Below, piece by piece: positions 1-48,227 of a stretch of DNA of 64,000 bases (position 1 is the first letter of the stretch; the number at the start of each line of letters is the position of its first letter). Source of the stretch: Microbotryum violaceum (Eukaryota); NCBI GenBank assembly GCA_001244265.2, contig CDLV01000006.1, positions 62,001-126,000 of the forward strand. Direction: 5' to 3'. A program made the position numbers and the translations under genes. The notes below the pieces were generated by a model. That model did no database searches. It saw nothing but the letters and a program-made list of their open reading frames with translations, and was not told where the DNA came from.

Positions 1-45
1 GACGCGTAACGAGGCGGTTCAATTTCATGCGCTGGCGGCTCCTAT

Positions 46-1207
46 CTAGTACTCGACTTCTTCCTCGCCGCGCTCCACCGACCCAACCCTGGGCCGTAGC
101 GCGTCAACTACCGGCGACCGGTCCCTGCTGACGTCATTGACTTGCACCTCGTTGTCGCCACTGCCGATGAGCTCTTGTCCAGCCGAGATTTGATCTTGAG
201 AGGTTTGCTCAGCTTGGTCTTTAACCTCTTCAACGTTCTCTTGTAGCCGTAACGCCTTTTTCTTCATCTCGTCAATGTTGCCCTTTTCCATGCGGCTGTG
301 TGCGAGCCATTCTGACTCTGCTTTCTTGATGCGGCGCGCGACATCCGCGACTTGATCATCCAGCTCGTTCTCTTGGCACTTCAGGAGGCGGAATGGCAGG
401 TAGAAGATGGGTCGTTGTCTGTCTTGAGATACTATATGCTGTGATGAAAGAAGCTGGGCCGTATTGGGGAAAGACACCATATCGGAAGGTCCTGGCCGAT
501 TGGACTTCGAGGGCGCGGCGTATAAAAACTCGGCTAGGTCGAGCTCGATTTCGTGTTGGGTTTGCATCTGGAAAATTCGAGACAAGACGTGAGGACCGTC
601 ACCACCAGGGGCCATCCGGTACGAAGAGCGTTGTCGAAAGGAAAGGACTGACCGTTGCCTCCCACCTGGCTAGCTCCTCCTCCTTCAGCGAAATCGCGAG
701 TACCAGGTCTCTCGCCTCTTTCGATCGATCTCGCTGGTCCATCATATGCTTCCTTTCGTCATGCAACTTTCTGTAAAGCTTATCCTCAAGTTGTTGTCTC
801 TTCTTGGCCGCTTCGGATGTTTTGCTCGTGCCAGCTTGCTTCAGGGTATTCTGCAAGAGACCAAAAAATCGACGTCCTCGCTTCTGACTCTCGTCCGCGA
901 CAATGCCAGATGCCTTTCGTTTTCTTGAAGCGAGTTCGTCTTGAGATTCTGTCAGCGCACGACCATTCTTGGCCCCGTCTTCTGAATGGATGTGGTGTGG
1001 GAGAGGGTTTGTCGCGGTTTCCGTCGCTGGCAAGTCGACTCCGCTGGCAGAGGCAACGGCTACAGAAAGTGCCCCGGGAGAGAGGGTGTTGGTGGAGGCC
1101 TGTTCTATAATGGTGCCTCCCGGAGATCCCGCTTCGTCCATGCTGTCATAAAGTGATCCTTGGCTGGGGCAGTCGACCGTGGCTTCCTTCAGGTCTGTTG
1201 TCGTCAT
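46..1207 (-). CDS. Pinin/SDK/memA-domain splicing-associated protein, two exons (1207-653 and 567-46)
   Basis: Motifs RGRRFFGLLQNTLKQ and PIFYLPFRLL with coiled-coil segments resemble fungal pinin-domain proteins. An 85-nt GT..AG intron (652-568, GTCAGT...TTCCAG) joins ORFs 599..1294 and 46..615 in frame. ATG at 1207. Confidence 0.8.
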
Positions 1208-1689
1208 CGGCGATCGAAAATCTGGTGTGTATGGGTGCACAGCGTTAAGCTGACAAGGGTGTTCGAGAGCTACTGTGTCGCGCTGTGATAACAATGAAAG
1301 CGCAGTCGGACGTGCGATAATGCGACTTGAAGCGATAGATGAAGCCCCAAGCGCAAGATGGGCGCCATCTACGGGCCCTGCGAGGACTGGCGACGACGGG
1401 CGAAGACCAGCGACAAGGACAAATTAAATACGGCCCAAATACGGCCATTATAGGACCCCAGAAAGCCCAGCCAGAGGCGCATGTGGAAAAACGCACTTTT
1501 TTGGCCTTTTTGTCAATGTTTTTTACACTATTTTGGCCCTAAAATGTCAAAATTTCACATGCACCTCGAAAGTATTATCAAAATCCCTGAAGCTCTTAAG
1601 AGCTGAAGGTTTGTTCCACAAAAATTCGGCGGCGCGAGCTTGGGAAATTGACGACGATCTAAACGCCGGGGCCCTACGGGAAATTCACG

Positions 1690-1790
1690 CAACCGCAGTT
1701 GACCGCGGTTGGACGATTGCGCCGAAGTTAACCGCAGTTCAACCGCGGGCATCGCGCCGACCGCGATGCCCGCGGTTACGCGGATTACCA
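1690..1790. repeat. Short subterminal AACCGC(A/G)GTT-type repeats of the TIR element
   Basis: Several copies of aaccgcagtt / gaccgcggtt / aaccgcgg within about 100 bp. Confidence 0.55.
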
Positions 1791-2471
1791 ACTGCACGAG
1801 GTCGCCAACTTGGGAATGCTCCGTTACGCCCTGCAATTCTCAGTTGGCTCGTAGACTAAGGAGAACAGCCTGACTTTGAGACCTTATCTAGTGCAGTAGA
1901 CAACTCGTGATATAGTCTCGAGTGGTGCTCTAATTAAATACATCAACCTAAGAATGTGTAACATCTCCAGATTCAGATGTGGTGGTCTTGGAACTGGACA
2001 AGGTTTCCAAAGGATTGAAGCTAATGAGCAATTGGAGAAACCGGGCCCCTGTATCTTCAACCGGACGACCGAATGGAGACCGCTCTGCCTCGTGTCAGTG
2101 CCAGGCGTCGTCCTGGCGCAGAGGGGTCGCATGTGGAGACACAGATATCGCATATGTGTTGGGGGCTGTTACAGCTGGCCCTGCGCCTTGCGCAAGCTCG
2201 GCCGCGGTGGGAGGCAACCGCAGCGTATTTGGGATGCTGGACACGAGTTGGCGGAGACGCTTGACACCGATCAGGCTGAGGGTGCGAGGACCATCCACAT
2301 TGAATCTCTTGTACAACCCCCGGATGTCCATGGCAACTGGAAGACATCGACCAACGAAAGCAATCGCTTCTCCTTCAGCACTGTTATACCTAGCTCAACA
2401 AAACACTCAACTTCGCCAGCGCGCTGTGAATTGTCGGCCTCCATTGACATCTGTGGATCCCAGATTTGCGG

Positions 2472-5400
2472 TCAAGAATCTCTCCGCTGACATAAGAAAT
2501 GATGAGTTGTTTTGGTGGTACTCACTTGCACAAGTTTAGCCGTCTTGCAGTTGATAGTGCCTTGCGTATTTTGCATCTTGTTACCAGATCCGAGCAACGT
2601 GACTGCTGATGCACCTGCACCCTCAAGGTGCCGCCATCCTTTGTCAAGCAAGCTGCCAAAACATGGATGGTTCTTGGTGTAGTTGTTTGCGTTCAACCCC
2701 AGAGAGTTATCGACATGACACAATAGATGAATATGACGGTGCACCCGAGTCATACTGGTGGTGGTTCTACCACACATTGGGAGCCATGGCGGGCGGACTG
2801 GTGCATGGTCACATTGACTTCTACTGACACTGCCTCCATGGGAGACTGCAACCTCTTTGGTCAAGTTGATGAAATTTTGCAAAGGGTGTTGCGCCATTTT
2901 CTTGAGCATGTGCAGCTTGTAGCCCAGCTGCTGGGCATGCAAGGCATGATCCCTTGGCAAAGTGTCCCGGAGATTGACCATTGTAGGTATGTTGTACTTG
3001 AGTCGGAGGATCATCATCATGTTCCGCATCTCCGCCGAATTCATGCCAGACTCGACGGGTTTTGACTTGCTTCTCATCCCCCCTTTGATGTAACCCATCA
3101 TTGTCTCCGTTCCGCAAGCCGAGTACTCGCAAAGCGGCCCCATTCTTTTCATAACATCGGGAACATGCATAAGACAATGATTCATGGCGGGGAACAGATG
3201 AAGGAACTTGGGATCTCGATCATAGAGAAACTTCTTGGGCAGTAGCAGTGTCTGTTTGATGAGAACATAGAGGTATGTGTACGTGATGGGAACCACGCCC
3301 TTTTCATTGAGCTCGTACAGACGAAGTTGTTCGAGCCGGAACCCAGCTGCTGGGCATGCAAGGCATGATCCCTTGGCAAAGTGTCCCGGAGATTGACCAT
3401 TGTAGGTATGTTGTACTTGAGTCGGAGGATCATCATCATGTTCCGCATCTCCGCCGAATTCATGCCAGACTCGCCGGGTTTTGACTTGCTTCTCATCCCC
3501 CCTTTGATGTAACCCATCATTGTCTCCGTTCCGCAAGCCAAGTACTCGCGAAGCGGCCCGATACTTTTCATAACATCGGGAACGTGCATAAGACGATGAT
3601 TTGTGGCGGGGAACAGATGAAGGAACTCGGGATCTCGATCATAGAGAAGCTTCTCGCGCAGTAGCAGCGTCTGTTCAATGAGAACATAGAGGTAGGTGTA
3701 CGTGATGGGAACCTCGCCCTTTTCATCGAGCTCGTACAGACGAAGTTGTTCGAGCCGGTCGACGTCCGGTAGGCGATCGAAAAAGTCAACGGAGTCGTCG
3801 ATGAAGAAATCGTTCTTCATCGCCGCAAACATTCGGATGGTGAGCGCCGTCTGTCTCGAACTCGGGTTCCTTGAATTGCTGGTACAAAAGCGGTCCCAGG
3901 TCACGCAAGATGAACAGTTCCCCCCTCCACTCTCGCAAGGTACGGCCGAGACAACAGCTGAGCACGAGTCATGCGAGCGATCGCGTCGGAGGACAACGTC
4001 ATGGAGTGCCTGCATGCCTTTGAATCCAAATTGCCAACGAGGATATTGATGAAAGTACTGCCACTGTTGATACCAATCAGATGCATATAATCCAATGGTA
4101 GGAACGTGGAGTAAGCATCCTTGAACAGGTCAACCGCCTCAATCGGAGCTTCGCCTGAGATCCCCGTACGACGCTGCAGCGATTCGAGCTTGGTCGGCTG
4201 TCGTTTCATTGCTTCAACCACCCGACGGTAGTGCTTGTAGTTGCGCTCGTTATCCAGTCGAACGCCCCGTCCACCAGGGGTTTGGAATGTCGTGGCGGTG
4301 TCAACAAGCCCAGCCCACTCGGGATGGTCGAGCACTGATACGATCACTCCCTCGTCGTTTTCGACGCTTTTGCATGAGGAACAGCATGAGGAACACAGAA
4401 CGGCAGATAGCCTTTGGTGTTTCTAGGTGCGTAATGAGGTATGCTGATGGTCGAGCAGATCAAGCACAAAGCGAGGCCTCTCGCTCCCACAAGGTTTCCA
4501 AGGGCTGCTTGCTCCAGCGTGCCGGCTATGCAAGCCACGATCCTGTCTCTGCAAAGCACGTGTCTGTCCCGAGCGGCTGAAAAGGATGTACGCTCCCTTC
4601 GAAGGTGTGAAGCTGTTGACAGAATGTTTCGAGGAATGACTGCTCGTCTTTGGGTTTCTGAGGGCCGTTCACGGAGATGACAAAGTGCGATGATAGCTTC
4701 CAACGAACTTCGGGGGGCCGGGGGGCAGGGTCATGGGTATCACCCCAGAGATGTGGGTGTTGACCTTGCGATTGGCGTTGGAGTGCGCGAGCACTTCGGT
4801 TCCATCGGAGAAGGTTGCAAGAGGGATGTCATCCGGCTTGAGATTGCCGTTTGCGTAAAGCGGCCGTGCGTGTAAGCCATCAACCCATCGCCTCACGACC
4901 GGGTAAGAGCCCGAGCCACCTGACGCCTTGTGCAAGTCGACGACCTTGTCGCTCGGCTTGGCATTGGCAAGGGCAGGGCCGATTACTGGGTGTGCACGAA
5001 GCGCTTCAACAAAAGGGGCGGGGTCATAAAAGCGCTGCGCTGACCGTTCAATCTTCTCGCCATTCTTCCCCAGCGTGAAACATTTCTCGCGGCACCGGGC
5101 GTTGGACACTCCTCAAGATCTTCGAGCCGTTTGGCGCCATAGGACACGCAACCTTTGGGGCACTTCCCGACCTCCACCGTTCCTGAAGCCGGTGAGATGT
5201 CGTATCGTTCGGACCATTTTGTACTCGGACATGTCGCTGAGGTCGGCGTTGTGGAAGGTGTAGGTGCGCAGCAATGTGAGGAGGTCAGTCTAAGCGTCCC
5301 TCGAAAGCGAATGGTCCCGCTTGAACATGTAGGGTTGTAGCTTGGCAAGGTCATGGGGTGGAAGCGTTCGACCTTGAAGGTCTGTATGAGGTATTTACTG

Positions 5401-5605
5401 CATCAGCCCTCGTGTTCGTGTCAAATATGACCGCTTGAAGCACAGCAAGACTTTGAATCACCTTCGGCACCAAGTTCGGCGAGATGAGCCTCAAGCGCGG
5501 CAATCTCATCTTCAATGGGCTCGAGCTCTTCTCCCTCCCCTTGGACATCCTCTTCCTCTCTCGCGCCTCTCAGAACGTTCTCACCGCTTTGCGCTCCACC
5601 CGCAT
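2472..5605 (-). pseudogene. Degenerate, divergent CACTA/EnSpm (Tnp2/Transposase_21-like) transposase
   Basis: Ordered motifs CPKGCVSY..LEECP, PLATFSDG, LPP, GNLVGARGLALCLIC, LDYMH and CGTETMMG parallel CVKTCVAF..LTRCP, LFTDG, NLPP, GFKGPTAKWPCRVC, SDFMH and FAMERLNQ of the CACTA transposase at 21655-25876. Many frameshifts and stops; 3' boundary approximate. Confidence 0.7.
2923..3758. repeat. Tandem duplication of 417 bp (2923-3339 and 3342-3758) inside the transposase relic
   Basis: Both copies run from cccagctgctgggcatgc to gttgttcgagccgg. The peptide block CGTETMMGYIK...HAQQLG appears twice in the ORF track. Confidence 0.95.
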
Positions 5606-5714
5606 GGGATTCCGTATCTGTCGTATGAGTGATGCAGGCGGAAGCTAGGCGCGCGGGTGCTTAGGCTGGAGCGTGGGCGCACAGCTGAGGGTTGGCTGAG
5701 GCCAGGTGGATGGC

Positions 5715-8700
5715 TGGATTAGGAAGGAGGTTCGCTTAGCGACAGAGGCCTTTCTTAGTTGCATCTTGAGGCTACTCTCTTATTCTTTTTATCGTCACTT
5801 GATCTTACAACTTTGTGGTCCTGACTTTGGCATGCTATCACAACGCATCTCTGCGCCGCTTAGGAGCGCGAGACTCAAATTCACAACAGGTTATGAGCCT
5901 GACGGGTTCCGCCACCCGCTCTCATAAGTCGGACAACATGTTCTCAGAGACCACGAACATGTTCGCTGTGTCCGACAAATCGTCGTCTGAGGTACTACGA
6001 CGTACCAACTACGACACCTGGGCACAAGAGATGATCTTGCTCTTGCGCTCCCACGATCTTTGGAAAATCACCAAGATCGGAATGGATCCGTCGATCATCG
6101 AGATTCCAGAGATCGTTGATCCCGATCTCGATCTCTACGTCGATTCGGTCCCGCTCGCCGACCACATACTCGGCGACTCGTTGTCGCCCGAAGAATCTAG
6201 GGAATTGCATCTTGATGCTCGTGCATCTTACCTCATCATTCCATCTCTCGATCCTGCCAACAAGTCGTTGGTCAGCAACTGCTCCACGGCGAACCAGCGC
6301 TGGGATGCTCTGCGCACCTATCACCTAGGCGAGCGCAACTCGCAAATCGCCTTGATCTCGGCGCAACTTTCAAGGATGCTCTATACGGGTAAATCTTCGA
6401 TCTCCTTGGAAGATCATATGATCAAAATTCGCGACCTCAACCTCAAGGCGAAGCAACTTGGCTACCTAAGGTCAAACACCGAAATCGCGTTTCAAATGCT
6501 GAACTCGGTAACGGATCCCAAGTGGGCGAACACGATTGAGGCCTTATCCCTCACCAGCGACCCTACACCGACCAAGATAATAGCACGTATAAAGGAGCGT
6601 GAAGTCACTTTCGCGCTCACAAACCGCATTCAAGGCGGAATGTCTCTTCTTCTTCCCAACGACCCCGCAACCGTTCAGACTGTTGCGGCCAACTCTGCTT
6701 CGGGTCCCAAGGGATCGTGCAAGACGGGGAAGAAATATCGGAGCAGGCGCAAACCTACCGACAGTTGCACTCGATGCAATGGAAAAGGTCATTGGGCCTG
6801 CAACAAGGAATGCCCCGGCAAACGCCCTGAATCTGTCGCATTGGTCAATGAAGGACATAATTCCAAGTCTGGTCCTCCTGCCCGCTTTGTAGTTGGCGCT
6901 CACATTGCACATGAAATTCCAACTGCCTCTTCGTCTCGTTATTCTACGGCTCTTGCCACTGCGAGAGATCCCACTTCAAAGCTTGAGTGGGTTGGCGACT
7001 CTGGAGCCATTCGCTATCTGATCGGCGATCGCTCCCTCCTTCGAACTTCACTCGAGATCCCATTGCCATTCAAGTTGCGGATGGTTCGATCCAAGAAGTC
7101 GAAGGCTATGGTGAACTTTCCGCTACTACCAAAGAAGGCAACATTATCGACTTCAAGAACGTCTACTGTTTGCCTGGAGCAAATTTGGCCCTCATCTCGT
7201 TCTTTTCACTCTGTGATAACGGATTCGAACTTCGTATGACGGATGGCAAAAAGACTATTAGTGTCTACTTGGACAACAAGTTCGTCTGCGCTACCGAGCG
7301 CGACACCGCCTACTACTTTGATTCCACCATCTACAACGAACCCGTGGCTGTTGTCACGCGCGCTTCGGCTGGTGCTCCGCTTATGTGGTGGCATCGTGTC
7401 TTTGGTCATCTTTCACCTCACACCATTCTCAACATGGTATCTACCAAGATGACCGTTGACATCAAGATCTCGGATGAAACGATTCACGGCTGCGAAACCT
7501 GCATCGTTGCGAACTCTCGCGCTGCACTGTTTCAACATGTCAGTCGTGAGCCGACCGAGGTTCTCTACCGCGTCTTCATCGACCTCGGTTTCGTCGATGT
7601 TCCAGATCACAAAGGACGTTTCGTCTATCTTGTCATCGTTGATCAACTTTCCTCGATGAAATGGACTTATCCCTTGACTTCCAAGTCCGCTGCCGAAGTT
7701 CTCCAGGTGTTCTGTCGCTTTCAAGCTCAAGCGGAACGCGTCACCGGCAAGACTATCAAGTTCGTTCGTTCGGACAACGGCGGGGAATTCCTCAACCGGT
7801 CTTTTGAAGCGGAGTTTACTCGACTTGGTATCACCCACGAGTTCACTGCTCGCTACACCCCCGAACAAAATGGCAAGGCTGAACGTGCAAACGGCTCGCT
7901 CTTTGCTATGGTGCGGGCGATGCTCAAGGATGCTGGACTTCCAGGCTCTTACTGGACCTATGCTCTAGATATGGCAACTTTCATCGCCAATCGCATGCAG
8001 CATCCTCGCTTCAAGAAGAAAATCATCTTCGAGATCATCTACGGCAAGAAACCGAGCGTCGGCCATCTCCGACCCTTCGGTGCTATCGCCTTCGTGCTCT
8101 TGCCTCGTCAGCTGCGTCGCAAGCTTGATGATCATGCCAAGAAGGGCATCTTTGTAGGATATTCCGGCGAGTAAAACTACATGGTTCTCGTCGACTACAC
8201 TACCTCTCCCAAGGTCCTCATATCTCGTGACGTCACTTTCACCGACGGACTCGCTTTCTGAGGTTCCTTCCGCTCCGGCCGACATCGATCGTGATCCGGA
8301 ACACTTTGCAGGAGGAGATCTTCGAATACGACCTCATCCCTCAACTTCGTGACATTCGACTTGATCCTGCGCATCTTCCAGTGCAGGACGGTCCTCTCGC
8401 GCCGGCTCCCAGGCGCGCTCCCGATGATCCGGCTCAGCCTCAGGCTCCCTCTGACGCTGCGGAATTGGTCCAAGACAACGTTGAAAATGATGATGTGATC
8501 ATTATCGATGAGCCCGTACGTGCAGAATCTCCTCCGCCTGAAGACGAACTCGAGGATCTTGTCCCTCAAGTTCCGAATGATGGCTACGAGTATCGTGCGT
8601 ACAACATTGGTCGCAATCCTGGTCGATTTGAGGATGTAAATGAAGAAAACATCCTTTCTCCTGGCTCTCGACGCGTTGCAGCTCGTTTGCGGTGGGGTCC

Positions 8701-9637
8701 GGAGAGGCTTTCTCCAATCCACCCGAACTCATCGCATCTGTCTCTCCTAATCACGCTCCACTCCCTCGATCTTACTCCGAGGCTATGGCTTCTGTCCATG
8801 CTAAATAGTGGCAAGCGGCTACCAATAAGGGGATCGCAAGTTCATTTATATTGGTGTTCTTGAGGCGGCAGCTCTCCCTCCTGGTGCTCGTGCGCTTGGA
8901 ACCAAGTGGGTCTACACGTACAAGGAGGATGTATCTGACGTGATCATTGGCTGGAAAGCTAGACTTGTCGTTCAAGGCTTTGGTCAACGCAAGGACATCG
9001 ATTACTTTGACATCTTTGCTCCTGTCTCGTCGATCTCGACGATCTTATTTATGGTTGCTGTCTCTTCGGCTCTCGGATTGCATCTCGAGCAATTCGACTA
9101 CGAGTTGGCTTTCCTCAACGGCATCATGACTGAGGATGTTTACATCAAGACTCCTCAAGGTTGGCCTACTACCAGTTTCTTCTGGCGCTCTCAAGCTCTT
9201 GAAGTCGATGTACGGAACCAAGCAGGCACCTTGACAGTGGAACGAAGCGCTGAATTTGCTGATGAACTCGCGCGGCTTTACTCGCTCCAAGGTTGATGCT
9301 TGCCTCTATTTCAAGTTCTGTGGCAAGTCTTTCATCTTCATCTCTATCTATGTGGAGGATGGACTCGCTGCGTCGAACCATCAAAACTTCCTCAACTCGG
9401 AGATTGATGCGTTCCATGCGGTCTACAAGCTCAAGCGTCTTGGCCCTGCCAAGATGATGTTCCTCGGTCTGGAGATAGCTCGTTCAGAGCACTACATCTT
9501 CGTTCACCAGTCGAAGTATATTCGCGGGCTTCTTGAGACGTACGTGTTCACAACTACGTCCAAACGCGGTGTACAGACGCCTATGGAGGACAAAGACCAG
9601 AAGACTTCTTCACTCCCATTTGACGATATTACTCTCT
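5715..9637 (+). mobile_element. Ty1/copia LTR retrotransposon A, 3'-truncated within RT
   Basis: LTR end ...CAACA at 5888 (LTR start approximate), PBS GGTTATGAGCC at 5889-5899, gag with CTRCNGKGHWAC knuckle, protease DSGA, integrase (WHRVFGH, RSDNGGEF, EQNGKAER), RT (KARLVVQGF, AFLNG, YVED). Stops and frameshifts present; no RNase H or 3' LTR. Confidence 0.92.
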
Positions 9638-9649
9638 AGGAAAATGGGC

Positions 9650-12600
9650 TAATGCCGCGAGCAAATGGTGCAATTACCAATTACGCGCGCGCGTTTACCC
9701 CCGAAGCTTGACCCATCTACCCAGGTAGTAAGGTGCAAAGTTCACTTACAAATGGTGCATTCTTCGTGCAAGTTTGGTGCGTTTGCCCCGGAAGAAAGGT
9801 GCATTTACCAATTAAGGATGGTGCATCTACCACGTAGCGGGGCAATCCGCTGTATCTCGTGTAGTATGCCATGTATCACCTTGAGACTTGACGAGCTCTT
9901 TTACACGATCACCAAGTACGTCCACCTTCAGTAAGGAGCACTCTCATCAGGATCCCATGTAGTTGGAAATCGTGCGTGCACCCGGGCCGGCTCTCGTCCA
10001 CGCCCCGGGGGAGTCGTCCGGACCCCGGACCGAGTAGCCCCCCCCCCCACCCTAGGCTGCAATACAATGACTAAGACGATCATTCATCTCGGAGCTGCGG
10101 GATGTGTCCATATGGAGTGGGACACCTTGTATAGCATTCCTCGCCGTATTTCCTGCCTCAGCTTGAACTTGGACAAGGAAGGTCATTGACTGCCTTTCCA
10201 AACCATCCGTGAACATGTTCTAACAAAGCTAGTAGCACATCACCAAGTGTTCTCGCAAAAGTCACTAGCCGCGATCATTATCTCATTATATGTATGTATA
10301 TACATCCTTCCGTTCTACTCATAATGGCACGGCTTAGGATCGACGACCTCACTCCTCTTCTTGCAGCTGCTCAAAATAAACCATGACCAATGTGAGTGTT
10401 CTGATGACAAGGAGGGTCCGATGTAGTTCGGGAGAGCCCATACCTTGAGCAAATGACTCCAACATCAGATTTGTATTGCGAGCCAGGCATTGAGTGCAAG
10501 GCTTCAGCGAAGCCGCGCAGCTTTGAAAAAAGATTCTTCCCTCTTGCGCTTCGATCGGCGAGGGCTTGAGGCGCTTTTGGATATAGCGTGGTCGAACGGC
10601 CAATGTACGTGTTTGATACCTTGGCAAGCAAGCAACGACCTCGAGTGCCTCAGACACCGGCAGAGGGGGAGTAGGTCGGGAGTCTCATTGGCGGTGCATC
10701 TGGCATGGAACCAATCGTTGCAATTGACGGTGCCGGGTTGGGCCGCGGGCTTCGTGAAATCAACGGAGAAGTACATTGAGCGTCGGGATTGGGCTCAGAG
10801 GTGTACATCGTGCCGACCGAAGGGTCAATCAGAATGGGGGTAGGCGCGCAAAATCCAATGCCGGGCGATCCCGATCCCAAGGGCTTCTCTTCGAGCTCCG
10901 GCGAACTCTCCTTGAGCGCGAGTGGGACAGATTCTGCATACACAAGAGTGTCAGCCTCAATATCAAGCAAGCTTGAACTATCACTAAGATCAAATCGTTG
11001 AGATCAACAGTAGGATGACTGACCGGGAACCGGCGGAGGAGCTCCACTCCCCTCTCGCAAATCGAGGGGAGGGGGGTCACAATTTGCTTCCAACTCCGGG
11101 TCACACCGCAAGCGACCATGTTTAACCACGTCTAACATGTATGCGCGTTGGTTAGCATAGAAGTTGTCCTGTAGTGGCTTGAGTGGGCTCCAGCTCCAGT
11201 CTAATTCAGATTGAAACGCAACCGCCGCGACCAACGTTTCCATCGTTCGACAAACGAAGACGCCGCAAGCGTTGCCATCGGGCTGTCGCGTAAACTCTGT
11301 CCTAGGCGTCAAGTCCCCCTTCTTCGGTATTCGCGGTTTCACGATCACTCCCTCCCACTCTGCGTACGGGATTGTGGGCCGGTCACTGCCTCCGGTGACA
11401 CGAGGGATGGGGCCTTCTGCCCGAGCCGTGAGGAAAGGAACGATGTTCTGCGATCATGAGCTCGGCGGATTATAGTCAGCCTATCAGGTAAGCGGGATCC
11501 ACACAAGTCGCTTCTCCCTCTCACCTTCAAACAATTGGCAAAGTTCTGTTCCGGCGATGGAATGTTCGGGTTGTCTACGCTTTCTTTAGATCGCCGCAGC
11601 GAGTCATGGAAGCGGAAGGTGTGGTCGGACAGACGGGCCTCAACAAGCACCCAATGACCGGGCACAATGTCAGGTGATCCGCCGGATGCTGATGGAAAGA
11701 GATCGATGAAGCACCGTGAGATGTTTCTATTACGGCGAGGCAACGTTCGTATTTGCAGGCTATCCGTTTGTGCTCCTGTTCCGGTTGGTTTCGCCAACGA
11801 AGGATAGGAAGAGGATCGGTGAGGAAGGATTTTGTCAGTTTTGTTTCCTAATCAGCAACTTCAAATAGCCATCAATGACTGCTTATGCTTGGAACCAGTA
11901 TCGACCTACTTCGGTGGCCATGTACAAAGGAAGCTTGAGAATTGGTATGGTGTCCTTGAGCATCCATTCATCTGCTTTCCTTCGGTTACCAAGAATCAGC
12001 GGCCATTGCCCGTAGTCGGCTTTCTCTTCTGCCGACCAGAGGAGGTTCGACGACATGATCGCTTGACATTTGGCTTGCATTGTGTCATACTCCAGCTGTA
12101 GATGATTGGGTGCACAATTTTCGAGGAGGTTGACGACTTGGCGCAGTCGATCCATGGCTTTTTCGCCGCCATCGGAGGAGCTGGCTTCGGAGTCGTCGAC
12201 GGCGGGGTCTGAGTCGGCGTTCGAGTCCACATCGTCGGAGCAGCCCTCAGGAGTCATTGAGATTTGATTGGAGTGCGTCACTGAGGGAGATTGGTCAATG
12301 ATATCGGGTTCCCGCTGGCGCAAGTCTTTCTTCTGGGTAGACGTAGTCGAGGACATCTGGGAGGTGCCATGTGCAGGTGGGCGGGTCATGTCGATTGGTC
12401 GGGTCCCAATGCGGGGTCGGCCACCCTTGTTCTGGCGTTGCGATCATCTGCTGACTGGACATGACGTATGCGACACGGGTTTTGGAACCAAGGCGAGTAT
12501 CGGTCGATGGCAACGGATGGCAGGAACTGGCGTGGCGCGGTGAACATGAGTCGAAAGTAGAAGTAGGCATTTGGCGCGACGCGACGCGTCAAGCAGGCTA

Positions 12601-13116
12601 CGTGCACCCAGACAAGATTGAGCAAGTTCGCTGGCGGCGATGCGCGGCTCTGCAGTGGATGCAGGGCCTACTTTGCTCGGGCAGTGACACGCATGATCGG
12701 ATCACTTGACCCGTTGTAGTACCCAGTAAAAGAAAGAGTGAATATTTCGATGCCTGGGGGCCTTCGTCGAGCCCGTGGGGGGAGTACGGGCACAATTTTC
12801 AACTACATGAGATCCGGGTGAGAGTGCGTCTTACCAAGGGTGGACGTACTTGGTGGTCATGTAAAAGGGCTCGTCAAGTTTCAAGGTGATACATGGCATA
12901 CTACACGAGATACAGCGGATTGCCCCGCTACGTGGTAGATGCACCATCCTTAATTGGTAAACGCACCTTTTCTTCCGGGGCAAACGCACCAAACTTGCGC
13001 GAAGAATGCACCATTTGTAAGTGAACTTTGCACCTTACTTCCTGGGTAGATGGGTCAAGCTTCGGGGGTAAACGCGCGCGCGTAATTGGTAATTGCACCA
13101 TTTACTCGCGGCATTA
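9650..13116. mobile_element. Non-autonomous element bounded by ~320-bp inverted repeats (9650-~9973 and ~12791-13116), possible TA TSD
   Basis: TAATGCCGCGAG(C/T)AAATGGTGCAATTACC... is matched in reverse complement for about 320 bp. No transposase seen inside. Confidence 0.82.
10349..12389 (-). pseudogene. Ulp1/C48-like SUMO-protease gene with a C-terminal PHD-like zinc finger (spliced and/or degenerate)
   Basis: EWMLKDTI, GHWVLVEA..FHDSL and RQPDGNACGVFVC match the Ulp1 His-Asp-Gln/Cys pattern. Downstream CNDWFHARC..LCRC resembles a PHD finger. Split over ORFs 11883..12389, 11345..11797, 11004..11348, 10504..10776 and 10349..10657. Confidence 0.7.
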
Positions 13117-13601
13117 TGTCTGGATGCAAAAAAAAATGCGCCTCCGGCTGGGCTTTCTGGGGTCCTGCCATTATCTGAGGACGAAGCAATTTCGCTTCTC
13201 TGAAAACCTTCTTGTCCACAGATGCAAAGACACGCGCAACTTGCTGTATTTCTAGCCACTTGTTAGATCGAAGGTTGGGATGTAGAACGAAAAGCCGGGA
13301 GTAGAAGGGTATCTTTGCAAGCATGAAGGGTTTCTCGGTGCAACCGGTGACGAACGCAGATTCAGGCTACACCTATGTTGCGCTACCGGTTGGTCGTAGA
13401 GACCTTGTTGTACCATTGTGCAATGAAGGGCACGGGCGAAGAAGAAAAGTGTTTTTTGCTCAGCAACACAATCTACTGGTAGCGCAGATCATTCACGCCA
13501 TCGGCATTTCAGGAAGCGTGCCGGGGAGTTAGAGCAGTCTTGTCCGTGGCCCTACCAAGCCAAAACAAGTTCAAGTGCAGGTCCTGCACAAGTCACAGCA
13601 A

Positions 13602-14345
13602 TCACAATTCCAAGTCGTGTTGCAAGGCTGCCAGTGAAAAAGGCTCTGGCTCCTCCGGATCTAACTCTATTCCGGCTGCACACCCCATTGCGCTTGACGG
13701 GAGAGCGGGCAGGTGCGCCGAAAACAGTTGGCCGTGGTCGTGGGCCTGCGTTGCCTGACCCAGTCCGCCATGCCTGGTTGATTCAGCAGAGGTACTGAAA
13801 AAATGACCGGGCAGCGGTGCCGACACACTCCTGCTTGGCGCATCGAAACCAGGCAAGGAGTCGGGTGAAAATGCTTCATCCCATTGTTTCCTATCGGCAG
13901 ATGCGAACGCGGCGGGATGCAAATGAGTCTGTTTTTGAGGAAGCCAGATGAAATCCCTCCAGTGATCATGAGTAGGCGACTCGATGTGATGAAGCTCCGT
14001 GACGAATTGAGGAGCTTCTTCTTCAGAGTAGCGAGATCTTGTACTGAAGTCGTTGTGCTCGTGCATACGTGGCAGCGCAGAAACATCAATCCACGGAGTG
14101 GTCCGTCGAAAAAGTTGTGTATGCTGCAGCATTGGGGGGAGACGATGAAAAGGCGTGACTTTGGTTAAGAGAATAGGAACTGTCGGTTCGCGGCACAGGA
14201 GATCGCCGAGACACCGAGGGTTGACTGCGTTTGCTAGGGTGGCTCGACGAGCGCCAATTTGGCCGTCCAGACCGGGCCTCTGCCGTGAATGCAACGGGCG
14301 ATGAATCCGATTCAGCTCTCTATCCATCGCTTTTTCACGTGTCAA
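13602..14345 (-). CDS. Hypothetical protein fragment, possibly an exon of a degenerate gene spanning ~13300-15000
   Basis: 247-aa open frame plus neighbouring minus-strand ORFs; no recognisable domain. Confidence 0.25.
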   Translation of the reverse strand: MTREKAMDRELNRIHRPLHSRQRPGLDGQIGARRATLANAVNPRCLGDLLCREPTVPILLTKVTPFHRLPPMLQHTQLFRRTTPWIDVSALPRMHEHNDFSTRSRYSEEEAPQFVTELHHIESPTHDHWRDFIWLPQKQTHLHPAAFASADRKQWDEAFSPDSLPGFDAPSRSVSAPLPGHFFSTSAESTRHGGLGQATQAHDHGQLFSAHLPALPSSAMGCAAGIELDPEEPEPFSLAALQHDLEL

Positions 14346-15232
14346 TCCCCACTAGGCAGGGCGGACTCTGTCAGCTCGACAAGTAATCTGACGTCCGACC
14401 TGGGGATCCAGCGACGGCGCTTACCCTCTTGCGCGATGTCGCGAGCCCATGCTCGCTCGAGCCGTCGTGCAGGAGGGTCGAGGGGGCCTGAATAGACCTC
14501 TTGTTTCGATCCGGAACTTGTGAGCCGTACCAATCCTCGCCAGACCCTGGGGACATGGCCCGACCGGAATGATCCAGGACCTTCAAGTTGGATTGGATGG
14601 TGGGCAGGAAGTTGGGAAAATCACAATCAGGCATAGGCACTGGAGGTGGTCGCCCGACCTCATGCTGGGATATGACTCACATCTAGCCTTTGCAAGGTAT
14701 CCCTCGCCTCGAGATTGGTGGACGACTCTGCACAACGCCCTGCCGTACGAGCTCCGAAGTTCAGCCGTGGCGCGCTGTTGCCGTTTCCCCAGTATGTACT
14801 TGAACCCTCCGTCTCCGAGCAGGACAAAGACAAGGCCATGCACGCCGACTCGTCGAGCCCACCTGACAAAGCGCCACCGATCTTTCACGTAGTGCGACCA
14901 AATGTCGGAAGAAAGCGCGATCCGCCAGCGAGCACTGAGTAGCGTATCCTGACAGCGACTCGAGATCCGAAACACCGGCCAGGGATCAGGAAGTGACGTC
15001 TCCTGACACCAAAATCTGCTGACTCGGTCTCGCAGAGGGTCAAAGAATTATCTGCTTGACTTCCGCCAGCTTGAGCGAAACCAAGCTGGGGCCGTGGAAC
15101 CAGTGCGAGCGATCGTTTCGAGCCAGCCTACGATCACGCGTGAGTCAAGCACAGAGTTCCATCGGTGCACCTACACGCGCAACCCTCAATCGTGCGGAAT
15201 TCTTATGTCCACAATCTGTACATCAGCAAAAT

Positions 15233-16826
15233 GGCCAAACGCGCGTAAGCGCGCGAAACCTCGTAAAGCTAAGCGGCCTAAAGCTGCTTTTAAGCGCCCT
15301 TAACCACTCGTTAAGCCGCGCGCGCGTTAAGTGTCGCTTAAGTGTACCCTAGATAAGGGACTCTTACGGCGCACTTACGGCGCGCTTAAGACTCCTCGCG
15401 CGCTTTGTTTGCATACGCAAAGCGATCCGTAAGCGCTCTTATGTATGGGCCGCCGTTTGGGCAACAAATGGATTTGCGCGCCCGGGGCTACTTGCGCGTT
15501 ACAATTCGTTTGTACGCGCACCGAAAATCGTGCAATTGCGCGCCAAAGGGCCTTCATACGCGCGTCATTCACTCTTGGACGCACTTTTGGTCTCTAACGC
15601 GCTCTGGAACCTGCGGAGTTGCGCGCTTTCTAGGAAAAACATCCGTTTCTGGCCCCTATTGGCGGTCTGCGCGCTTTTCACTCACTGTTAGACTCGCTCG
15701 CCCCGCCGTATATCCGCGCACGGACGGGGCATTACACGCGCTACAGCGCGCTTATGCGCGCGCAACCTACTCAATCTACGCGCTTTTTGCGATTTGTCCA
15801 AAAATAAAATAATAATTCCGAAGAATAATTTTGATTTTTTAAATTTTCATAGCAAAATTCCGAACCCCGCACTCCCGCTTTTTACGATTTGTGCGCCTCG
15901 GAAGCTGCTTACACGCGCTCCCAAAACAGTTCTCACGCTCGCAGAATCGCAGATGCGCGCGACCGGAAACGCTCACACGCTCGCGGCTTTTTCTACTTGC
16001 ACGGGAACCGACACCACTCGGAGGAGGTTTGCCTTTTTACTCCGCGGTATGGAACTCATTTTCATGGCAGGAGGACGTTTGCTCCGAATGCTAAGCTTTA
16101 TGTATTTTCAAATAGTGTCATTGCTATGGTGTATTGGGTTGGTGGTGTGGCTGTTGAAAGCGTTCGAGCTTTCGAGGCTCAGGGCTGGGCACTCCGAGAG
16201 TCGGGCTCCATTGAGTTTCAGAGAACTAGTAGTGCTCGTTCCAGATGATTATTTGTTGGGGTGGGCCGACAAATCCTGCGCCGGTGCTCCCGGCCAAGAG
16301 TCTTGGTGTGCAGCAGCAGAATCGTATATCGAACATCGGCACTGGAAGAATCTCTGCATCTGCTCCAGCCTGCATTAGGAGGGCTCAAAGAGCTCCCAGC
16401 TTGCAACGTACTTGCACCCTTGGCGGCCAACTCCCTCTCCCAAGTCGCAATGATACCATCTACTTTTCTCATGATAGCAGTTGAAGGCTGTTGAGTGAAA
16501 CAGAGTCGTTATGAAAGCGGGGAATAACTGGACAAGGTTGACGTGGGGTCGGTGTGTGTGTGGAAGAAGGCGGCCGCGCGTGAGCTCGCGTGTGTCGCGC
16601 ATGAACGAGGCTAGACGAGTCGCGGGCGCGCAGAAGCGTTCGGCGGGGCGCGCATATCCATATTTCTGGGCGCGCGGAGGCCCCAGGCGCGCAAATCCAT
16701 TTGTTGCCCAAACGGCGGCCCATACTTATGCGCGTATGCGTCCTTATGCGCATCTTATGCACCGATAAGCGCTGTTAAGCGCGCGTAATCTCAGGCGAAT
16801 CCTTAAGCGGGTTCGCGCGCGTGGCC
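15233..16826. mobile_element. 1.6-kb MITE-like element with GGCCA termini and CGCGCG-rich subterminal arrays (PIF/Harbinger/ISL2EU-like ends)
   Basis: GGCCA...TGGCC ends flanked by AT on both sides. A 45-bp inverted match lies at 15443-15487 vs 16681-16725, and both arms carry dense GCGCGC/TAAGCG repeats. Confidence 0.6.
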
Positions 16827-17093
16827 ATTCAATTCCAGGCGCGCGGCTGGAAATACCAGGGGCTTGGGTAATACCCTCGTGAGGTGGTAATACCCGACCC
16901 ACTGGTATTTCCAGCCGCGCGGGTATTACCACTTCACGAGGGGTATTACCCAAGCCGCTGGTATTTCTGTCGGTTGGGTATTAACCTTCTCAGCTGGTAT
17001 TGCCACCCGAAAAGTCTCAATAGGGGCTCTTGTGCGGAGCACGACCGAGCGCAATTAGCATTAGGTTTTGTGTAATGGGTGTCACCTTTGTAG

Positions 17094-17225
17094 TACTAAT
17101 GCTCATATTCGAATTTACTGATGCTCATATTCGAATTTACTAATGCTTACACTCGAATTTACTGATACTTGTATTTGAACATACTAATGCTCATATTCGA
17201 ATTTACTAATGCTCATATCCGAATT
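17094..17225. repeat. 22-bp tandem repeat, 6 copies (TACTAATGCTCATATTCGAATT)
   Basis: Direct reading; related decayed units occur at ~19750-19870 in the inner element. Confidence 0.92.
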
Positions 17226-17329
17226 GTAGTTTTTCAATGCAGGTTTTCTACTATATTATGATATAGGTGCACTACAAAGCAGCAAACTGAGTGTCCACGT
17301 CCGTCACAGGCTCCTCCCATTTGTCTGGA

Positions 17330-18456
17330 TTGTCAGATTGATCAAGATCTAAACCGCCCGAAGCTCCGGCTGCCGCTCCTCTTGCCCGTTTCTTATACCC
17401 TTTAGTCGGCTCTAATTATTCTTCCTCCTCTTCCTCTACCCGAGACTGCTCTTCCTCGCTTTCTTCTCTGCGGCGGACCCGCCTGGTGATGGTGTTCTGG
17501 CTAATGCGAGAAGATTGTTTAGCGTTTGCCTCCTTCGTCGATTTCAACTGACCCGGGCCTCTTGTTCAATCGAGGGTAGTGACTAACCTTTAGAGCAGAT
17601 CCTACGCCTAGCTCGTTGCGCAATCTTGTGATGTCCGCCCTGGAAAGCCGTCCCATGATCCCCGCCAACCGACAGGCCTCACGGTCGTACTGCAGTCTAT
17701 ACGCGGCTCAGGACAGTCGCCAACACATCAATAACAAGTTCTTCATAGAGCCAGTCGCCCGATGTGACCCTTAAGAAAGCCATGCGCTCACGAATCTGAA
17801 AGAGGATGACGAGTGCCCGAGCAAGCGCACGTTCCGTACAAGACTGGCAGGTTCCGCGTAACTCACATATCTGACGATATCTCGTTGTTTTGCACGTCCA
17901 AGACGTCCCCACACAGTAGTGCTGCTTTGCGTTTTGGCTTGAATGAGCCTGAACGCGTCCTTGAGGTTGAACTCCTTATGCGTGTGGTAGTCTGGAGTCC
18001 ACATGCCGATCATAAAGGTTGATGGGGTCAGGTGTGGTGATTACTGCCTTTACTAGTGCATCCCGTACAACCGACCGGTCGAAGGACATCACACAGATGG
18101 TGAGCACTGAGGAGTCAGATCGACGAAATGGCGTCGCGCCCCAATCGTTGAGCCGCCGGTACTCACGCAAACTCAAGTATAGTATACTCGCGCAGGCTCA
18201 TAGAACCCTTGTCTTTTCAACGTATTTTCTGGCCGGAAGAAACAAGAAGACAGGTAGCCGCAGTGGGCCGATGGTGAAGGACGGCGGCGCGGTTGAAAAA
18301 GAACACGTCAGCAAATTCCCTCAACTGTGGCGGTGCAGACGCAGACCGCGAAGATTTCAGCTCTCTGTACACACGTGGACGTCATTCATGCGGTGGTTCG
18401 TTGGACTTGTCCATCCTTGTTGTACGTCTTGCCGTGGTCGACGATGTTTGTGTCAT
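17330..18456 (-). pseudogene. CACTA accessory (second) gene relic of the outer element
   Basis: LKDAFRLIQAKTQS and QIRERMAFLRVTSGDWLYEELVIDVL match the inner-element gene at 19935-21462; frameshifts present; boundaries approximate. Confidence 0.7.
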
Positions 18457-18707
18457 GGTAGGAAGACGTAGGCGGGGAGGGTTGAGCTTCGACGTGGGCA
18501 CAAGTGGATCGAAGGCGAAAGAAGGAAGGAAAGAAGTGCGCGGACGCATGGCGCCCTTTCTCAGCGCACATAATCAAATCTGCCTAATCGCTACTCGTAT
18601 TGCGCATTACTGTAGCCCTAATGTCCCGGATGGCCTGCCGGACTTAGCGTCGTTCGTTGCTCTTGAGTCTCACGTCTCACCGTAATAAACCATTCGATTG
18701 CGCCACC

Positions 18708-19556
18708 ATGACACGCAACCAATGTTCTCGCCTATGCCATTGTTCGTTGTGCAACGATGCAATAGTATCAAGAGCGACACTAGTTCTACCGCCACAAACG
18801 CCTACAATCTGTTGACTCTTCCAGAGCCGACGCAACTGCTATCCTCGAGTTCTCGCGGCAGCCATCGGAACCTCCAACATTGCTTGCTCCTGAGGCCCAA
18901 TCGTTCCAGCCCCCTTTACCAACTCCTGGTTGGTTTGCAAGTCGCTCGCCACCACAATTAGCCACAAATGAAGCGCAATATGGAGTGCCCACCAGTCCCA
19001 AGGGTCCCTACTCTCCTCAAGGAGATCACGGGTCCGAGCGAGCTTCTTCGGTCGGGGATCAATGGGGTCAAGTGAGGACCAAGCGCTAGGATTGGACGAA
19101 GAAGATTTTCGCGAGACACAACAGTTTGACGCGGCATTTGATTGGGGAATGGTATCTCCTGACCTGGAATACGAGGACCGCTCCAGCTCCAGCTCGCTCC
19201 CATTTGACGACGACGACGACGATGACGACTCACGTACAAACACTAGTTTGTGCCTCTCACTCCACAGACTTTCCTGGTAGGGAAACTCAGGTCTCTTAAT
19301 CTAAGTCAATTGGAAGCCGTCGACGCTATCGAGCGGACTCCGGTGGCCAAGCCAGCGCAAAGGCGGCAAAAAAGAAAGGCTGCTTTTGTTGTCAGTGCGC
19401 AGAGGCACCAAAACTTGTTTTTCACTTGAGGTCGAGGAACTCTGGGAGCGATCGAGATTATAGATCTGCGCTGCATCTTAGGCTCAGCTGGTCGCATCTA
19501 TCGGAGGGTGGGTCGAGACTCGAGAGGAGCCTCGCGAGTATATTTTTGACCGATTG
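18708..19556 (+). pseudogene. Internally deleted CACTA transposase of the outer element (C-terminal codons continue at 26308-26343)
   Basis: N-terminal CHCSLC motif and SSSSLPFDDDD are joined directly to the last exon (LRCILGSAGRI...EYIFDRL|EDEARPNFLNL*); the catalytic core is missing. Confidence 0.8.
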
Positions 19557-19934
19557 CACTGAGCGACGTTTTTGGCGGGGAATACCCATCTGAATGGGTA
19601 TTGACTGGGCTGCGGTATTACCCATCAGAATAGGTATTACCCAAGCAGACGGTATTCCCTTCGGTTCGGGTATTTCCAATTTTATTGGGTAATACCATCC
19701 AAAAAGTCTCAATAGGGGCTCTTTTCGGGAGCGTGATCGAGCTTAATTCATATTAGCTTACTCATTAGGTTCTGTATCATTAAATGCTAGTGCGAGCTCA
19801 ATTGGCACTAGCTTACTCATTAGGGTCTGTATCATAAATTACTAATGCTCGCGTTCATATTACTAATGTTAATGCAGCCATTTTATATTGCATGCCAGAT
19901 GTTGTAGTATTTATCTAGCAAGTGTCTGCCTCCG

Positions 19935-21462
19935 TTACCATCTTTGACCCGTAGCCGGATAGTTTGGATCGTTGGCATCCAGATCATCCGCAGCTGCCGC
20001 GCGTGCTCCGCTTCCTCAAGTCCTTGGAGACCGTTCCACTTCCTTCGACTTCTTCTTCATCCTGTCCCTGATCCTCGTCTTCTTCTTCTTCAGCTCGACC
20101 GTTGCTAAGGTCTCTCTTTGGGTTGGTCTGTTGGCTTCTGTTAGGATTGTGTTTCGGTCTTCTTCTTCTTGTTTCTTGGCGGGCCCGGGCCTCTGACACC
20201 GCTGGCTGCAGGAGTCGAACGTTGGCCGCTTGAACCCACGTGGGGGCTTGTTTGTTGAGTCTCCTGCGACAATTGCGGCGATCCTGCTCCTTGGCGCGCT
20301 CCTCGCTTCTTGGGCACTAGGGTCCTGTTCCTAGTTGCCAGCACTTCTTCCTCTTCGAGGTCGCTTGTGCCTGTATCTGAAGCCAAATAGGCCCCGTCTT
20401 GGCTCTGAAGGAGTCATCACGGTCTCATCAGTGCATACCATCCAGTCCGATCTGGTTGAGAAGAAGGGGCTAACTTTCCGACTGGGACCTTCACCATGCC
20501 TGCTGCGGAGTGTCGCTATGTCTGCTTTGGAGAGCTGACCTTTGATTCCCGCAAGCCGGCACACTTCGCGATCGTACGCTAATTTCCAGGCGGACCGAAT
20601 ATTTGCCAAGACATCGATGACGAGTTCTTCATAGAGCCAGTCGCCAGATGTGACCGCAAGGAAACCAGCCCGTTCGCGAATCTGACCAAGTGCCAATGGA
20701 GGAGTAATTGGTCAGCACGCAAGCGAGCGCACAACAAGGTGACGACCGGGGGGGGGGGCTTCGTGTTACTTACATACTTGACGATTTCTCGTTGCTTCAA
20801 AGGGGAGAGATTCCCCCACAAGACTGTGTTTGTGCTAGTTTTGGCAGAGATGAGTCTGAAGGCGTCCTTGAGATCGTAGTTTTCGGGCAGGTCGTGGTTG
20901 GGGGACCACTCCTGGTTGATCTCCGCAAGCGGCCCATACAGCTGGACCGGGGTAGGTGTCCTGATCCCTGCCACTACTAGTGCGTCCCGCACCACCGACT
21001 GGGTCGAGGAAGGTTACGAGTGGCACAGGGATGTCAGAGCTAGTCGGTAGTGGGGCTCTGCTCGCTGGACTTGCCGGCACTTACGCGAACCCAATTGTAA
21101 TAGATTTTGTCAATTTGCCCGCGCTTGCAAGTATAATCACGCAAGCCCATATTGCCCTTGTCTTTTCGTGCGTACATGCCGTCGGCATCAATGTATTTTC
21201 TGGCTGCAGTGGACCGATGCGGCACACGTCAGCGAAAATGTGGCTGACTTAGCCCGAACGAGACTCGGCCCAAGCTTGAGGCCTCCTGAGGCCTGAGCGC
21301 TTGAGCCCGAACCAGCTGAGCCCAAACCTGAGCCCGAACCTGAGCCCGAACCTGGCGAAGCAAATCCTTGAATCAGAACAAGTACTGCATGCTGAGCTCA
21401 CCAGTGCCCTTCCCATTCCGTCTTTGGTTCTCTTTGTCCTTCTCTGATGCAGATCCTGCCAT
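19935..21462 (-). CDS. CACTA accessory protein (TnpA-analogue candidate), multi-exon, possibly damaged
   Basis: ORFs 20579..20995 and 20331..20696 conserved with the outer-element paralogue; low-complexity acidic/basic C-terminus; 12-bp GAGCCCGAACCT repeats at ~21303-21353. Exon model approximate. Confidence 0.55.
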
Positions 21463-45587: not shown

Positions 45588-48151
<2,564 letters not shown>

Positions 48152-48227
48152 ACTATTAGTATTCTTGCTGTTGTTCATCTGTAGCTATGGCAGTGAAGAC
48201 TCACATTTTGTGTCCTAACTAACGACC

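Follow-up and report, generated by a model that had tools for sequence, protein, structure and literature searches.

Within the Mutator-like elements (MULEs), the Kaonashi MULEs of plants carry a Ulp1 protease and the plant KI-MULEs have Ulp1 as a separate gene; some Zisupton transposases also carry SWIM and Ulp1, and IS256 elements are the bacterial kin of the MULEs. For MULEs, target site duplications (TSDs) of 8-11 bp and terminal inverted repeats (TIRs) often hundreds of bp in length are given in PMC6446971, the CMCT clade is described in section 3.1 of PMC12730594 with TSDs of 2-5 bp and mostly CA..TG ends, and fungal DNA transposons with an accessory C48 protease have been screened before (PMC5751038). 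Within Microbotryum itself, TIR elements are reported to be lacking from M. intermedium and very rare in M. scabiosae (PMC10502011). In this work we analyzed a mobile element at positions 1452-13166 of a 64,000-nucleotide stretch of Microbotryum violaceum (contig CDLV01000006.1, positions 62,001 to 126,000 of the forward strand; this whole stretch is referred to as the window), which an earlier note had described as a Tnp2-like gene of CACTA type and a Ulp1/PHD module enclosed by non-CACTA ends with an 8-bp TSD. We propose, with a probability of roughly 0.6, that this 11.7-kb unit is a composite, non-autonomous member of a multi-copy MULE family, in which the Tnp2 relic and a piece of a copia retrotransposon are passengers. 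The odd ends and the 8-bp TSD are most likely ordinary for the element's own family.

The boundaries of the element are well defined. A 31-nt TIR (AGGACCCCAGAAAGCCCAGCCAGAGGCGCAT) at 1452-1482 on the plus strand pairs with its counterpart at 13136-13166 on the minus strand at 30 of 31 positions, and the first 21 nt of the TIR occur only at these two sites in the window, even when up to three mismatches are allowed (none of 100 shuffled sequences matched). Abutting the TIRs on the outside is a TSD, GCCATTAT, with copies at 1444-1451 and 13167-13174 that are identical over 8 of 8 positions and that cannot be extended to nine. Both the TIRs and the perfect duplication were thus as the earlier note had reported them. 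The element ends are AGGACCCC...GGGGTCCT and not CA(CTA/G)..TG, and the TSD length of 8 bp, measured on one copy, lies outside the CMCT range and inside that of the MULEs. A blastn search of positions 1-14000 against the whole window recovered just three pairs of repeats, these being the TIRs, a tandem duplication and a 327-nt inverted repeat. An alternative parse with TAGG/CAGG ends and a 6-bp TSD was rejected; it requires two chance identities, and the AGG...CCT parse with the 8-bp TSD is favored because contig termini in other sequencing runs fall at 1452 and 13166. The insertion site is 20 nt past the end, at 1423, of a pinin-like host open reading frame (ORF), that is on the 5' side of the gene. 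This host ORF (602-1423, minus strand) encodes a pinin/SDK/memA domain (E 7.6e-8).

The distribution of the element outside the window was addressed in public sequencing data, where window positions 200-2200 were present in 20 of the 24 runs listed (best share 0.77). Positions 1-16000 were compared with the Logan contigs of four of these runs (X1, X7, X11, and X13, from three organisms), and all counts given here are among the contigs listed. At least 8 to 9 contigs per run in X1, X7, and X11 carried unlike sequence ending exactly before 1452, and unlike sequence immediately behind 13166 was seen in at least nine contigs of X11 and at least six of X13; in a single X1 contig 13166 was joined to position 8686 of a copia copy. 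From these unlike flanks it follows that the termini lie exactly at 1452 and 13166, as found in contigs of the four runs, and that the family is multi-copy. Since at least seven (X1), seven (X11), and four (X13) contigs match the right end over its outermost 39 nt only and diverge inside 13128, there are several subfamilies with a common TIR. Contigs running from the left flank into the TIR were present in all four runs (from 1, or in X7 from 1003, to 1481 or 1522), and contigs running from the right TIR into the flank were present in X1, X11, and X13 (from 13061-13140 to about 15200), with none listed across the right junction in X7. The X1 junction contigs showed no differences over 1481 and 2063 nt, and for X13 there were 24 in 1522 nt. 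All runs compared thus have the insertion; no joint of 1451 to 13175, and thus no pre-insertion allele, was found among the contigs of these 4 of the 24 runs. Summed contig depth, which does not equal copy number, was far above that of the flanks at both ends of the element and lower over its genes.

Near the right end, at 10374-12332 on the minus strand, lies what we read as an internally deleted relic of a MULE-type transposase gene which keeps an N-terminal part, the His (about 11700) and Cys (about 11250) boxes of Ulp1 (C48), and a C-terminal tail. The Ulp1 ORF has 13 relatives in Microbotryum, of which the long ones (P0102, 1190 aa; P0103, 1462 aa; P0105, 990 aa; P0107, 987 aa) possess a central region absent from the window. 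The locus tags of the two longest are BZ3500_MvSof-1268-A1-R1_Chr9g10750 (P0102) and Chr3-3g06569 (P0103). Relative to P0103 the window copy skips from about residue 218 to about residue 1148, so that up to about 930 residues (P0103 219-1147) are missing; the junction is at about 11650-11694, the part lost is the one that would hold the DDE domain and SWIM finger, and Ulp1 is out of frame with respect to the N-terminal part. At relaxed thresholds Pfam gave Peptidase_C48 at E 0.28 and PHD at E 0.1, the latter over 13 residues of a CNDWFHARC stretch. The earlier note's Ulp1/PHD module therefore holds for Ulp1, by its His and Cys boxes, and was not confirmed for PHD; a paralogous family has a fungal Zn2Cys6 cluster at the end where PHD was proposed. 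In contigs of X1, X7, and X11 a stretch of 1253 nt (10094-11348) is skipped, so that those genomes also hold a still shorter deletion derivative of this gene.

The nature of the missing central part was examined in the relatives. Searches with it identified six further relatives in Microbotryum and Phenoliferia (28-42% identity). Peptidase_C48 was above the Pfam cut-off in four of the six, weak in a fifth (E 0.14) and not detected in the Phenoliferia protein P0116, and Zn_clus was above the cut-off in two and weak in two more. The conserved blocks of the domain are G[IL]DSSW, MIDK, CQFH 25 residues later, TNNxTE, and CxCx11CxH, and the first four are kept in 6 to 8 of 8 relatives within the domain that the window copy lacks. 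We take this order of blocks to be the MULE pattern followed by a SWIM finger, with a DDE domain that has CxxH after its second Asp. Pfam SWIM exceeded its cut-off in a 41%-identical metagenome relative (L001; 22.8 bits against 19.6, E 6.4e-5) and scored E 0.056 in P0102. In the ESM atlas residues 240-830 of P0103 and 380-980 of P0116, two members which are only 28% alike, fell among MULE/SWIM clusters (0.94; 176 and 179 common features), and for both proteins the ten best family-bearing matches all agreed. A structural model of the whole P0102 protein was too poor to use (mean predicted local distance difference test score, pLDDT, 34.4), and a model of the domain alone reached 62.6. When compared with 48,161 chains, the domain model had a single match at Z of 8 or more, the transposase of the IS256-family element ISCth4 (Z 8.9, root mean square deviation 4.6, 217 residues aligned); the next chain had a Z of 6.8, the P element transposase was at 5.0, and Hermes was absent among the 50 rows listed. 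These sequence and model comparisons together indicate, with good but not full confidence, that the central domain is Mutator-like.

This family has so far been seen in proteins of Microbotryomycetes and in five metagenome loci only, the latter recovered from 111 candidate stretches and being short and intron-rich; no terminal repeats were found in three of them (L002-L004). In eight relatives (P0102, P0103, and P0112-P0117) no KDZ or hAT family was detected at E values up to 1 or 10, a search in which the HMMER filters drop most weak matches. A profile of the family searched against PDB sequences returned only SENP5 (E 1.3). The best protein matches of the genes of the element were gene models of M. 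silenes-dioicae and M. saponariae (73-96% identity), which agrees with an anther-smut fungus as the host, and in these two species the locus tags showed that gene models of the Tnp2-like type and of the MULE-Ulp1 type are never neighbors.

Reading inward, the right end consists of the TIR, T8-GCATCCAGACAT, and an arm of 327 nt, the 19 nt between TIR and arm (13117-13135) being ATGTCTGGATGC plus a run of A. This outer arm (12790-13116, minus strand, with TGCACCAT at 12940, 13007, and 13094) has an inverted partner at 9650-9975 on the plus strand (ATGGTGCA at 9665, 9752, and 9818), which sits just past the 3' end of the relic Ulp1 gene. The two arms, which we call B type, are 94.2% alike, have three ATGGTGCA motifs each, and flank the Ulp1 gene on both sides. 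Among the loose ends listed there was no cluster at 13116 or 9650 even though contigs from single reads were included, which weakly suggests that the 327-nt arm continues into the TIR in other copies too. That the right TIR lies 19 nt from an arm whose inverted partner is on the far side of the relic gene counts in favor of the MULE assignment.

The left end is of a different type, which we call A. Inward of the TIR it shows GTGGAAAAACG, repeats of CACT[TA]TTTTGGCC (at 1494 and 1526), and a stretch at 1581-1671 which is tandemly repeated or variable elsewhere; this subterminal unit (1483-1685, plus strand) had very high summed contig depth (bin 1069-1602), contig joints that lead back at 1626-1671, and an X11 joint from 1477 to 1581. 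From 1686 there follow CACG and AACCGCRGTT / CCGCGGTT repeats (1691-1777) and then the Tnp2-like stop codon at 2095. Over this region (1686-2094, minus strand) the depth drops to the level of the Tnp2-like gene, and it may be regarded as a candidate end of the Tnp2-like unit. The loose ends of contigs clustered at 1452 and not at 1483, and the X11 contig linked 1452-1477 to 1581 onward, so the A unit seems to adjoin the TIR elsewhere too. By its sequence the element is a chimera, in which the right end, together with the two arms and the gene they enclose, is of B type and the left end of A type. In the old duplicate pairs of the element most differences are transitions (13 of 19 in the tandem pair and 15 of the 18 substitutions in the arms), several of them TCG/CGA against TTG/CAA, a hypermutation pattern that has been reported for Microbotryum repeats (PMC12730594).

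The composite Mutator-like reading implies the following course of events. The transposase of the family would be a fusion of an N-terminal region, an RNase-H-fold DDE domain with CxxH, a SWIM finger, an Ulp1/C48 protease, and a C-terminal tail. As DDE and SWIM are deleted in the window copy, movement would be possible only with an enzyme supplied by another copy. By analogy with MULEs, such a donor enzyme would bind the common 31-nt ends, excise the element and paste it into an 8-bp staggered cut, leaving GCCATTAT on both sides. The right end and the 327-nt arms around the relic gene would be the native MULE part, and the left end a different subterminal type with just the 31-nt TIR in common. 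The Tnp2-like gene and the copia piece may have been trapped when two TIR-bearing ends were joined, or may have inserted later and then been partly deleted, and in either case would be unrelated to the chemistry of ends or target. That a MULE-type enzyme uses these ends, and the order of the events, are what we infer.

The similarity to described MULEs extends from the domain of the relatives, with its putative DDE, CxxH after the second Asp, and SWIM finger behind it, to the element itself, which has a TSD within 8-11 bp, long inverted arms, and many non-autonomous copies with the same ends and different insides; as in Ulp1-bearing MULEs, a C48/Ulp1 protease travels with the element. It differs from plant KI-MULEs in that a single reading frame encodes the transposase and Ulp1 together. 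In this copy the true ends match over 31 nt only and the 327-nt arm, with its partner internal to the element, lies 19 nt inside the right end; the relatives score below the Pfam MULE cut-off.

One of the two proposed passengers is the Tnp2-like gene, which runs on the minus strand from about 5470 to 2095 and whose presence agrees with the earlier note. Its frame changes at about 4383/4371, 3950/3913, and 3856/3855, and in the ORF at 4344-4730 the second catalytic Asp has been replaced by Gly (ACIAGTLEQAA). A tandem duplication at 2923-3758 (copies 2923-3339 and 3342-3758, 95.4% alike, period 419) doubles the H(3)H...E region, which is single in the relatives P0001-P0003, so the duplication is private to this copy. 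This copy is a pseudogene. The earlier note was right that the Asp is absent here, but the change is private to this copy: the window copy alone reads IAGTLEQ, and all relatives retain the Asp (IADTLEQ, DTVEQ) in alignment with the D of GDxPA in Tnp2 proteins.

The three Microbotryum gene models that match the gene (P0001, BQ5605_C036g11529; P0002, C002g01306; P0003, Chr3-1g05932) carry no Pfam name and no PF02992. A phmmer search with P0002 against 1.84 billion representatives gave 94 matches at E of 0.001 or less, of which 40 were scanned with Pfam, the Microbotryum fragments and most shorter matches being left out. PF02992 (Tnp2) was found in 23 of the 40, in 20 of them above the Pfam cut-off, 17 had no Pfam family, including the closest (27-31% identity), and none of the 40 had a KDZ or Plavaka family. 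The closest clade comprises Rhodotorula, Phenoliferia, M. intermedium, and a Cyphobasidiales metagenome-assembled genome (MAG). In an alignment that included the canonical Tnp2 protein of the same window, the SDG, IADTLEQ, CLIC, HRLMH, and GTE of the relatives align with the D, D, C(2)C, H(3)H, and E of Tnp2, and C(2)C and H(3-4)H are the signature of the CMCT clade (PMC12730594, section 3.1). By sequence the gene is a member of a divergent EnSpm/Tnp2 branch of the Pucciniomycotina in which DT[LV]EQ replaces GDxPA. This passenger gene resembles EnSpm/CACTA (Tnp2, PF02992) in these aligned positions and differs from it in forming a separate DT[LV]EQ branch, which is missed by the Pfam model; the enclosing element differs from EnSpm/CACTA in having no CA..TG ends and a TSD of 8 bp instead of 2-5 bp. 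At relaxed Pfam thresholds the minus strand gave DUF4218 at E 0.022.

The other proposed passenger was found when 21 ORFs of the element were scanned with Pfam (E of 0.01 or less): matches occurred in four ORFs, all on the plus strand and all of Ty1/copia type, and none of the 21 gave a transposase domain, be it of hAT, KDZ or another type. The truncated Ty1/copia element (about 5803-9639, plus strand, its 5' limit undefined) has gag, integrase and reverse transcriptase (RT), with Retrotran_gag_2 (2.3e-9), rve (2e-11), SH3_retrovirus (1.3e-15), and RVT_2 (5.5e-23 and 6.5e-13). Its last domain is RVT_2, at the end of which it breaks off, 10 nt short of the inner arm (9650), so that RNase H and a 3' long terminal repeat (LTR) are lacking. 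This copia fragment, the 327-nt inverted repeat, the tandem duplication, and the internal deletion of the Ulp1 gene had not been recorded in the earlier note. The 10-mer CCTGACTTTG occurs only at 1869-1878 and 5820-5829 on the plus strand, flanking the Tnp2-like gene, and 2 of 100 shuffled sequences reached two matches; the pair has no inverted ends inside it and may have arisen by chance or been left behind by an insertion. It prompted the idea that a copia LTR had been split by the Tnp2 unit (1483-1878 plus 5830 onward), which was rejected as the loose ends lie at 1452 and not at 1483. One M. silenes-dioicae gene model (P0004) fuses the C-terminal part of a Tnp2-like protein to the integrase and RT of another copia family, and so Tnp2-like copies adjoin copia elements elsewhere too.

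It should be noted that a number of observations weigh against the composite Mutator-like reading. The Pfam MULE model gave at best E 0.17 (P0116) and 0.15 (an ORF of L005), in both cases at the CxxH end only and short of the cut-off of 27.6 bits; best Z scores of 7-8 are common for models without a clear match; and Foldseek found no match at E of 0.001 or less with either the whole-protein or the domain model, Hermes appearing at E 0.011-0.031. Two of the gene models relied upon are incomplete, P0102 being without the N-terminus and P0103 without the first SWIM cysteines and the Ulp1 His box. The loose-end counts leave 347 further loose ends aside, so that what is missing from them is weak evidence, and no TIR pair enclosing a complete MULE gene was recovered, contigs breaking at the 31-nt repeat. 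The left TIR passes into its subterminal unit and then into the Tnp2-like gene without a break. Neither inverted matches beyond chance between 1483-2100 and 5300-5950 or 9560-9650, which separate Tnp2 termini would show, nor a TSD of a separate element around the Tnp2-like gene could be found; likewise YAGTG is absent from 5300-5950, and nowhere in the window is there an inverted counterpart to the CACG...AACCGC that begins at 1686. Finally, the inner arm abuts the truncated copia and lacks the outer 50 nt, and the ends have no subterminal motifs in common, and because of these two features the element is taken to be chimeric and its history has to be inferred.

The most probable of the alternatives, which we still regard as unlikely, keeps the MULE and changes the order of events: a plain deleted MULE was present at insertion, a Tnp2-like element and the copia nested later in its left long TIR, and one deletion then took the 3' half of the copia, the far Tnp2 end and 19 nt of the arm. 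It would account for the copia stopping at the end of the RT, 10 nt before an inner arm that is short by exactly the outer 50 nt, and the 94-95% similarity of both duplicated pairs indicates that the structure is old. However, a nested insertion should have left a TSD, and none can be seen; in other copies, too, the left subterminal unit seems to be continuous with the TIR (the cluster at 1452 and the X11 joint from 1477 to 1581), as expected of a native end and not of a nested one. The earlier note had itself offered a cargo-carrying element with a dead Tnp2 gene, which is close to what was found in that the Tnp2 relic is read as a passenger, which may have been carried in or have inserted later. 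Its mention of Ulp1-bearing MULEs likewise fits the composite Mutator-like reading.

A more doubtful possibility is that neither gene is cognate, the ends having been moved by a transposase encoded elsewhere (hAT, KDZ/Zisupton, or a 41%-identical paralogous MULE-Ulp1) and the contents being cargo or debris. The 8-bp TSD would suit hAT and Zisupton too (PMC12730594), hAT elements share the short TIRs as well, the element is chimeric, and the presence of at least three different sequences after the common TIR in different copies means that most members are non-autonomous. This has to be set against the Pfam scan of the 21 ORFs, which gave no transposase domain of hAT, KDZ or another type at E of 0.01 or less, and against the lack of any KDZ or hAT family in the eight MULE-Ulp1 relatives scanned or in the atlas matches, where the neighbors were MULE/SWIM only; the best structural match was of the IS256 family, and the arms on both sides of the relic gene seem to lead into the TIR. 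Least probable in our view is that the Tnp2-like branch of Pucciniomycotina EnSpm/CMC itself uses AGG...CCT / AGGACCCC ends with 8-bp TSDs, which would make it the first lineage of the CMC clade to have termini other than CA together with 8-bp duplications, and the MULE-Ulp1 relic and copia its passengers. The continuity of the left TIR with the high-depth subterminal unit and the Tnp2-like 3' end, the failure to find separate termini, and the X11 contig linking the TIR to 1581 onward in another copy all speak for it, as does the distinctness of the DT[LV]EQ clade, in which Pfam Tnp2 misses the Microbotryum proteins and their closest relatives (27-31%) and which has so far been seen only in Pucciniomycotina (Microbotryum, Rhodotorula, Phenoliferia, and the Cyphobasidiales MAG). 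Yet the CMCT lineages described have the short TSDs and mostly CA..TG ends cited above, the divergent Pucciniomycotina EnSpm having CAC..GTG and 3 bp (PMC12730594, section 3.1), and the canonical EnSpm in this very window has CACTG ends and a TTG TSD. It would also turn a near-complete MULE-type gene family and TIR-abutting 327-nt arms into cargo in many copies, and the two gene families are not neighbors in two annotated genomes, nor do the ends share subterminal motifs. A new CMC-related lineage, as first suggested, is therefore not supported: the relic of a DDE+SWIM+Ulp1 transposase of probable Mutator-like type lies near the right end, the 8-bp TSD fits MULEs, and the missing Asp is private.

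Other mobile elements of the window were recorded alongside. The canonical CACTA element expected at 19557-26304 was present, with CACTG/CAGTG ends, the TTG TSD, subterminal arrays of GGGTATTACCC, and a Tnp2 ORF at 22752-23450 (PF02992, 3.1e-14). A second CAGTG end lies beyond it at 26845 (26816-26845), and upstream of the element, at 16835-19556, there is a partial copy in which the left part recurs, spaced by about 2.7-2.9 kb. The right-flank unique contigs of all four runs end at about 15200, where another high-depth repeat begins (15202-16800) that is rich in GCGCGC/TTAAGC, has an inverted repeat of 55 nt (15434-15488 / 16680-16734, 93%), and is joined elsewhere to 5900 and 1583 in contigs. 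Further transposable elements (TEs) occupy 30092-38286, 45916-49488, 49959-53811, and 55131-59583; they comprise two Helitron Rep/helicase stretches, a Ty3/gypsy piece with a chromodomain, and two copia copies with 27-54% protein identity to the copia of the element.

In the literature on Microbotryum TIR elements and on MULE/Ulp1/Zisupton no description of this family was found, Repbase and the supplements of PMC10502011 and PMC12730594 being outside the scope of the search. If the composite Mutator-like reading is correct, the clash between a CACTA-type enzyme and hAT/MULE-type ends would be the outcome of nesting, and no new transposition chemistry would be needed. Microbotryomycetes would then have Mutator-like transposases fused to an Ulp1 protease which the Pfam MULE model does not detect, so that automatic TE classification will miss or mislabel the family, and the same fungi have a separate Tnp2-like branch (DT[LV]EQ). 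On this reading, a shell bounded by TIRs can preserve defunct genes from other superfamilies so that they may still be mobilized, and such shells with foreign dead genes would matter for superfamily counts of the TE load on Microbotryum mating-type chromosomes.

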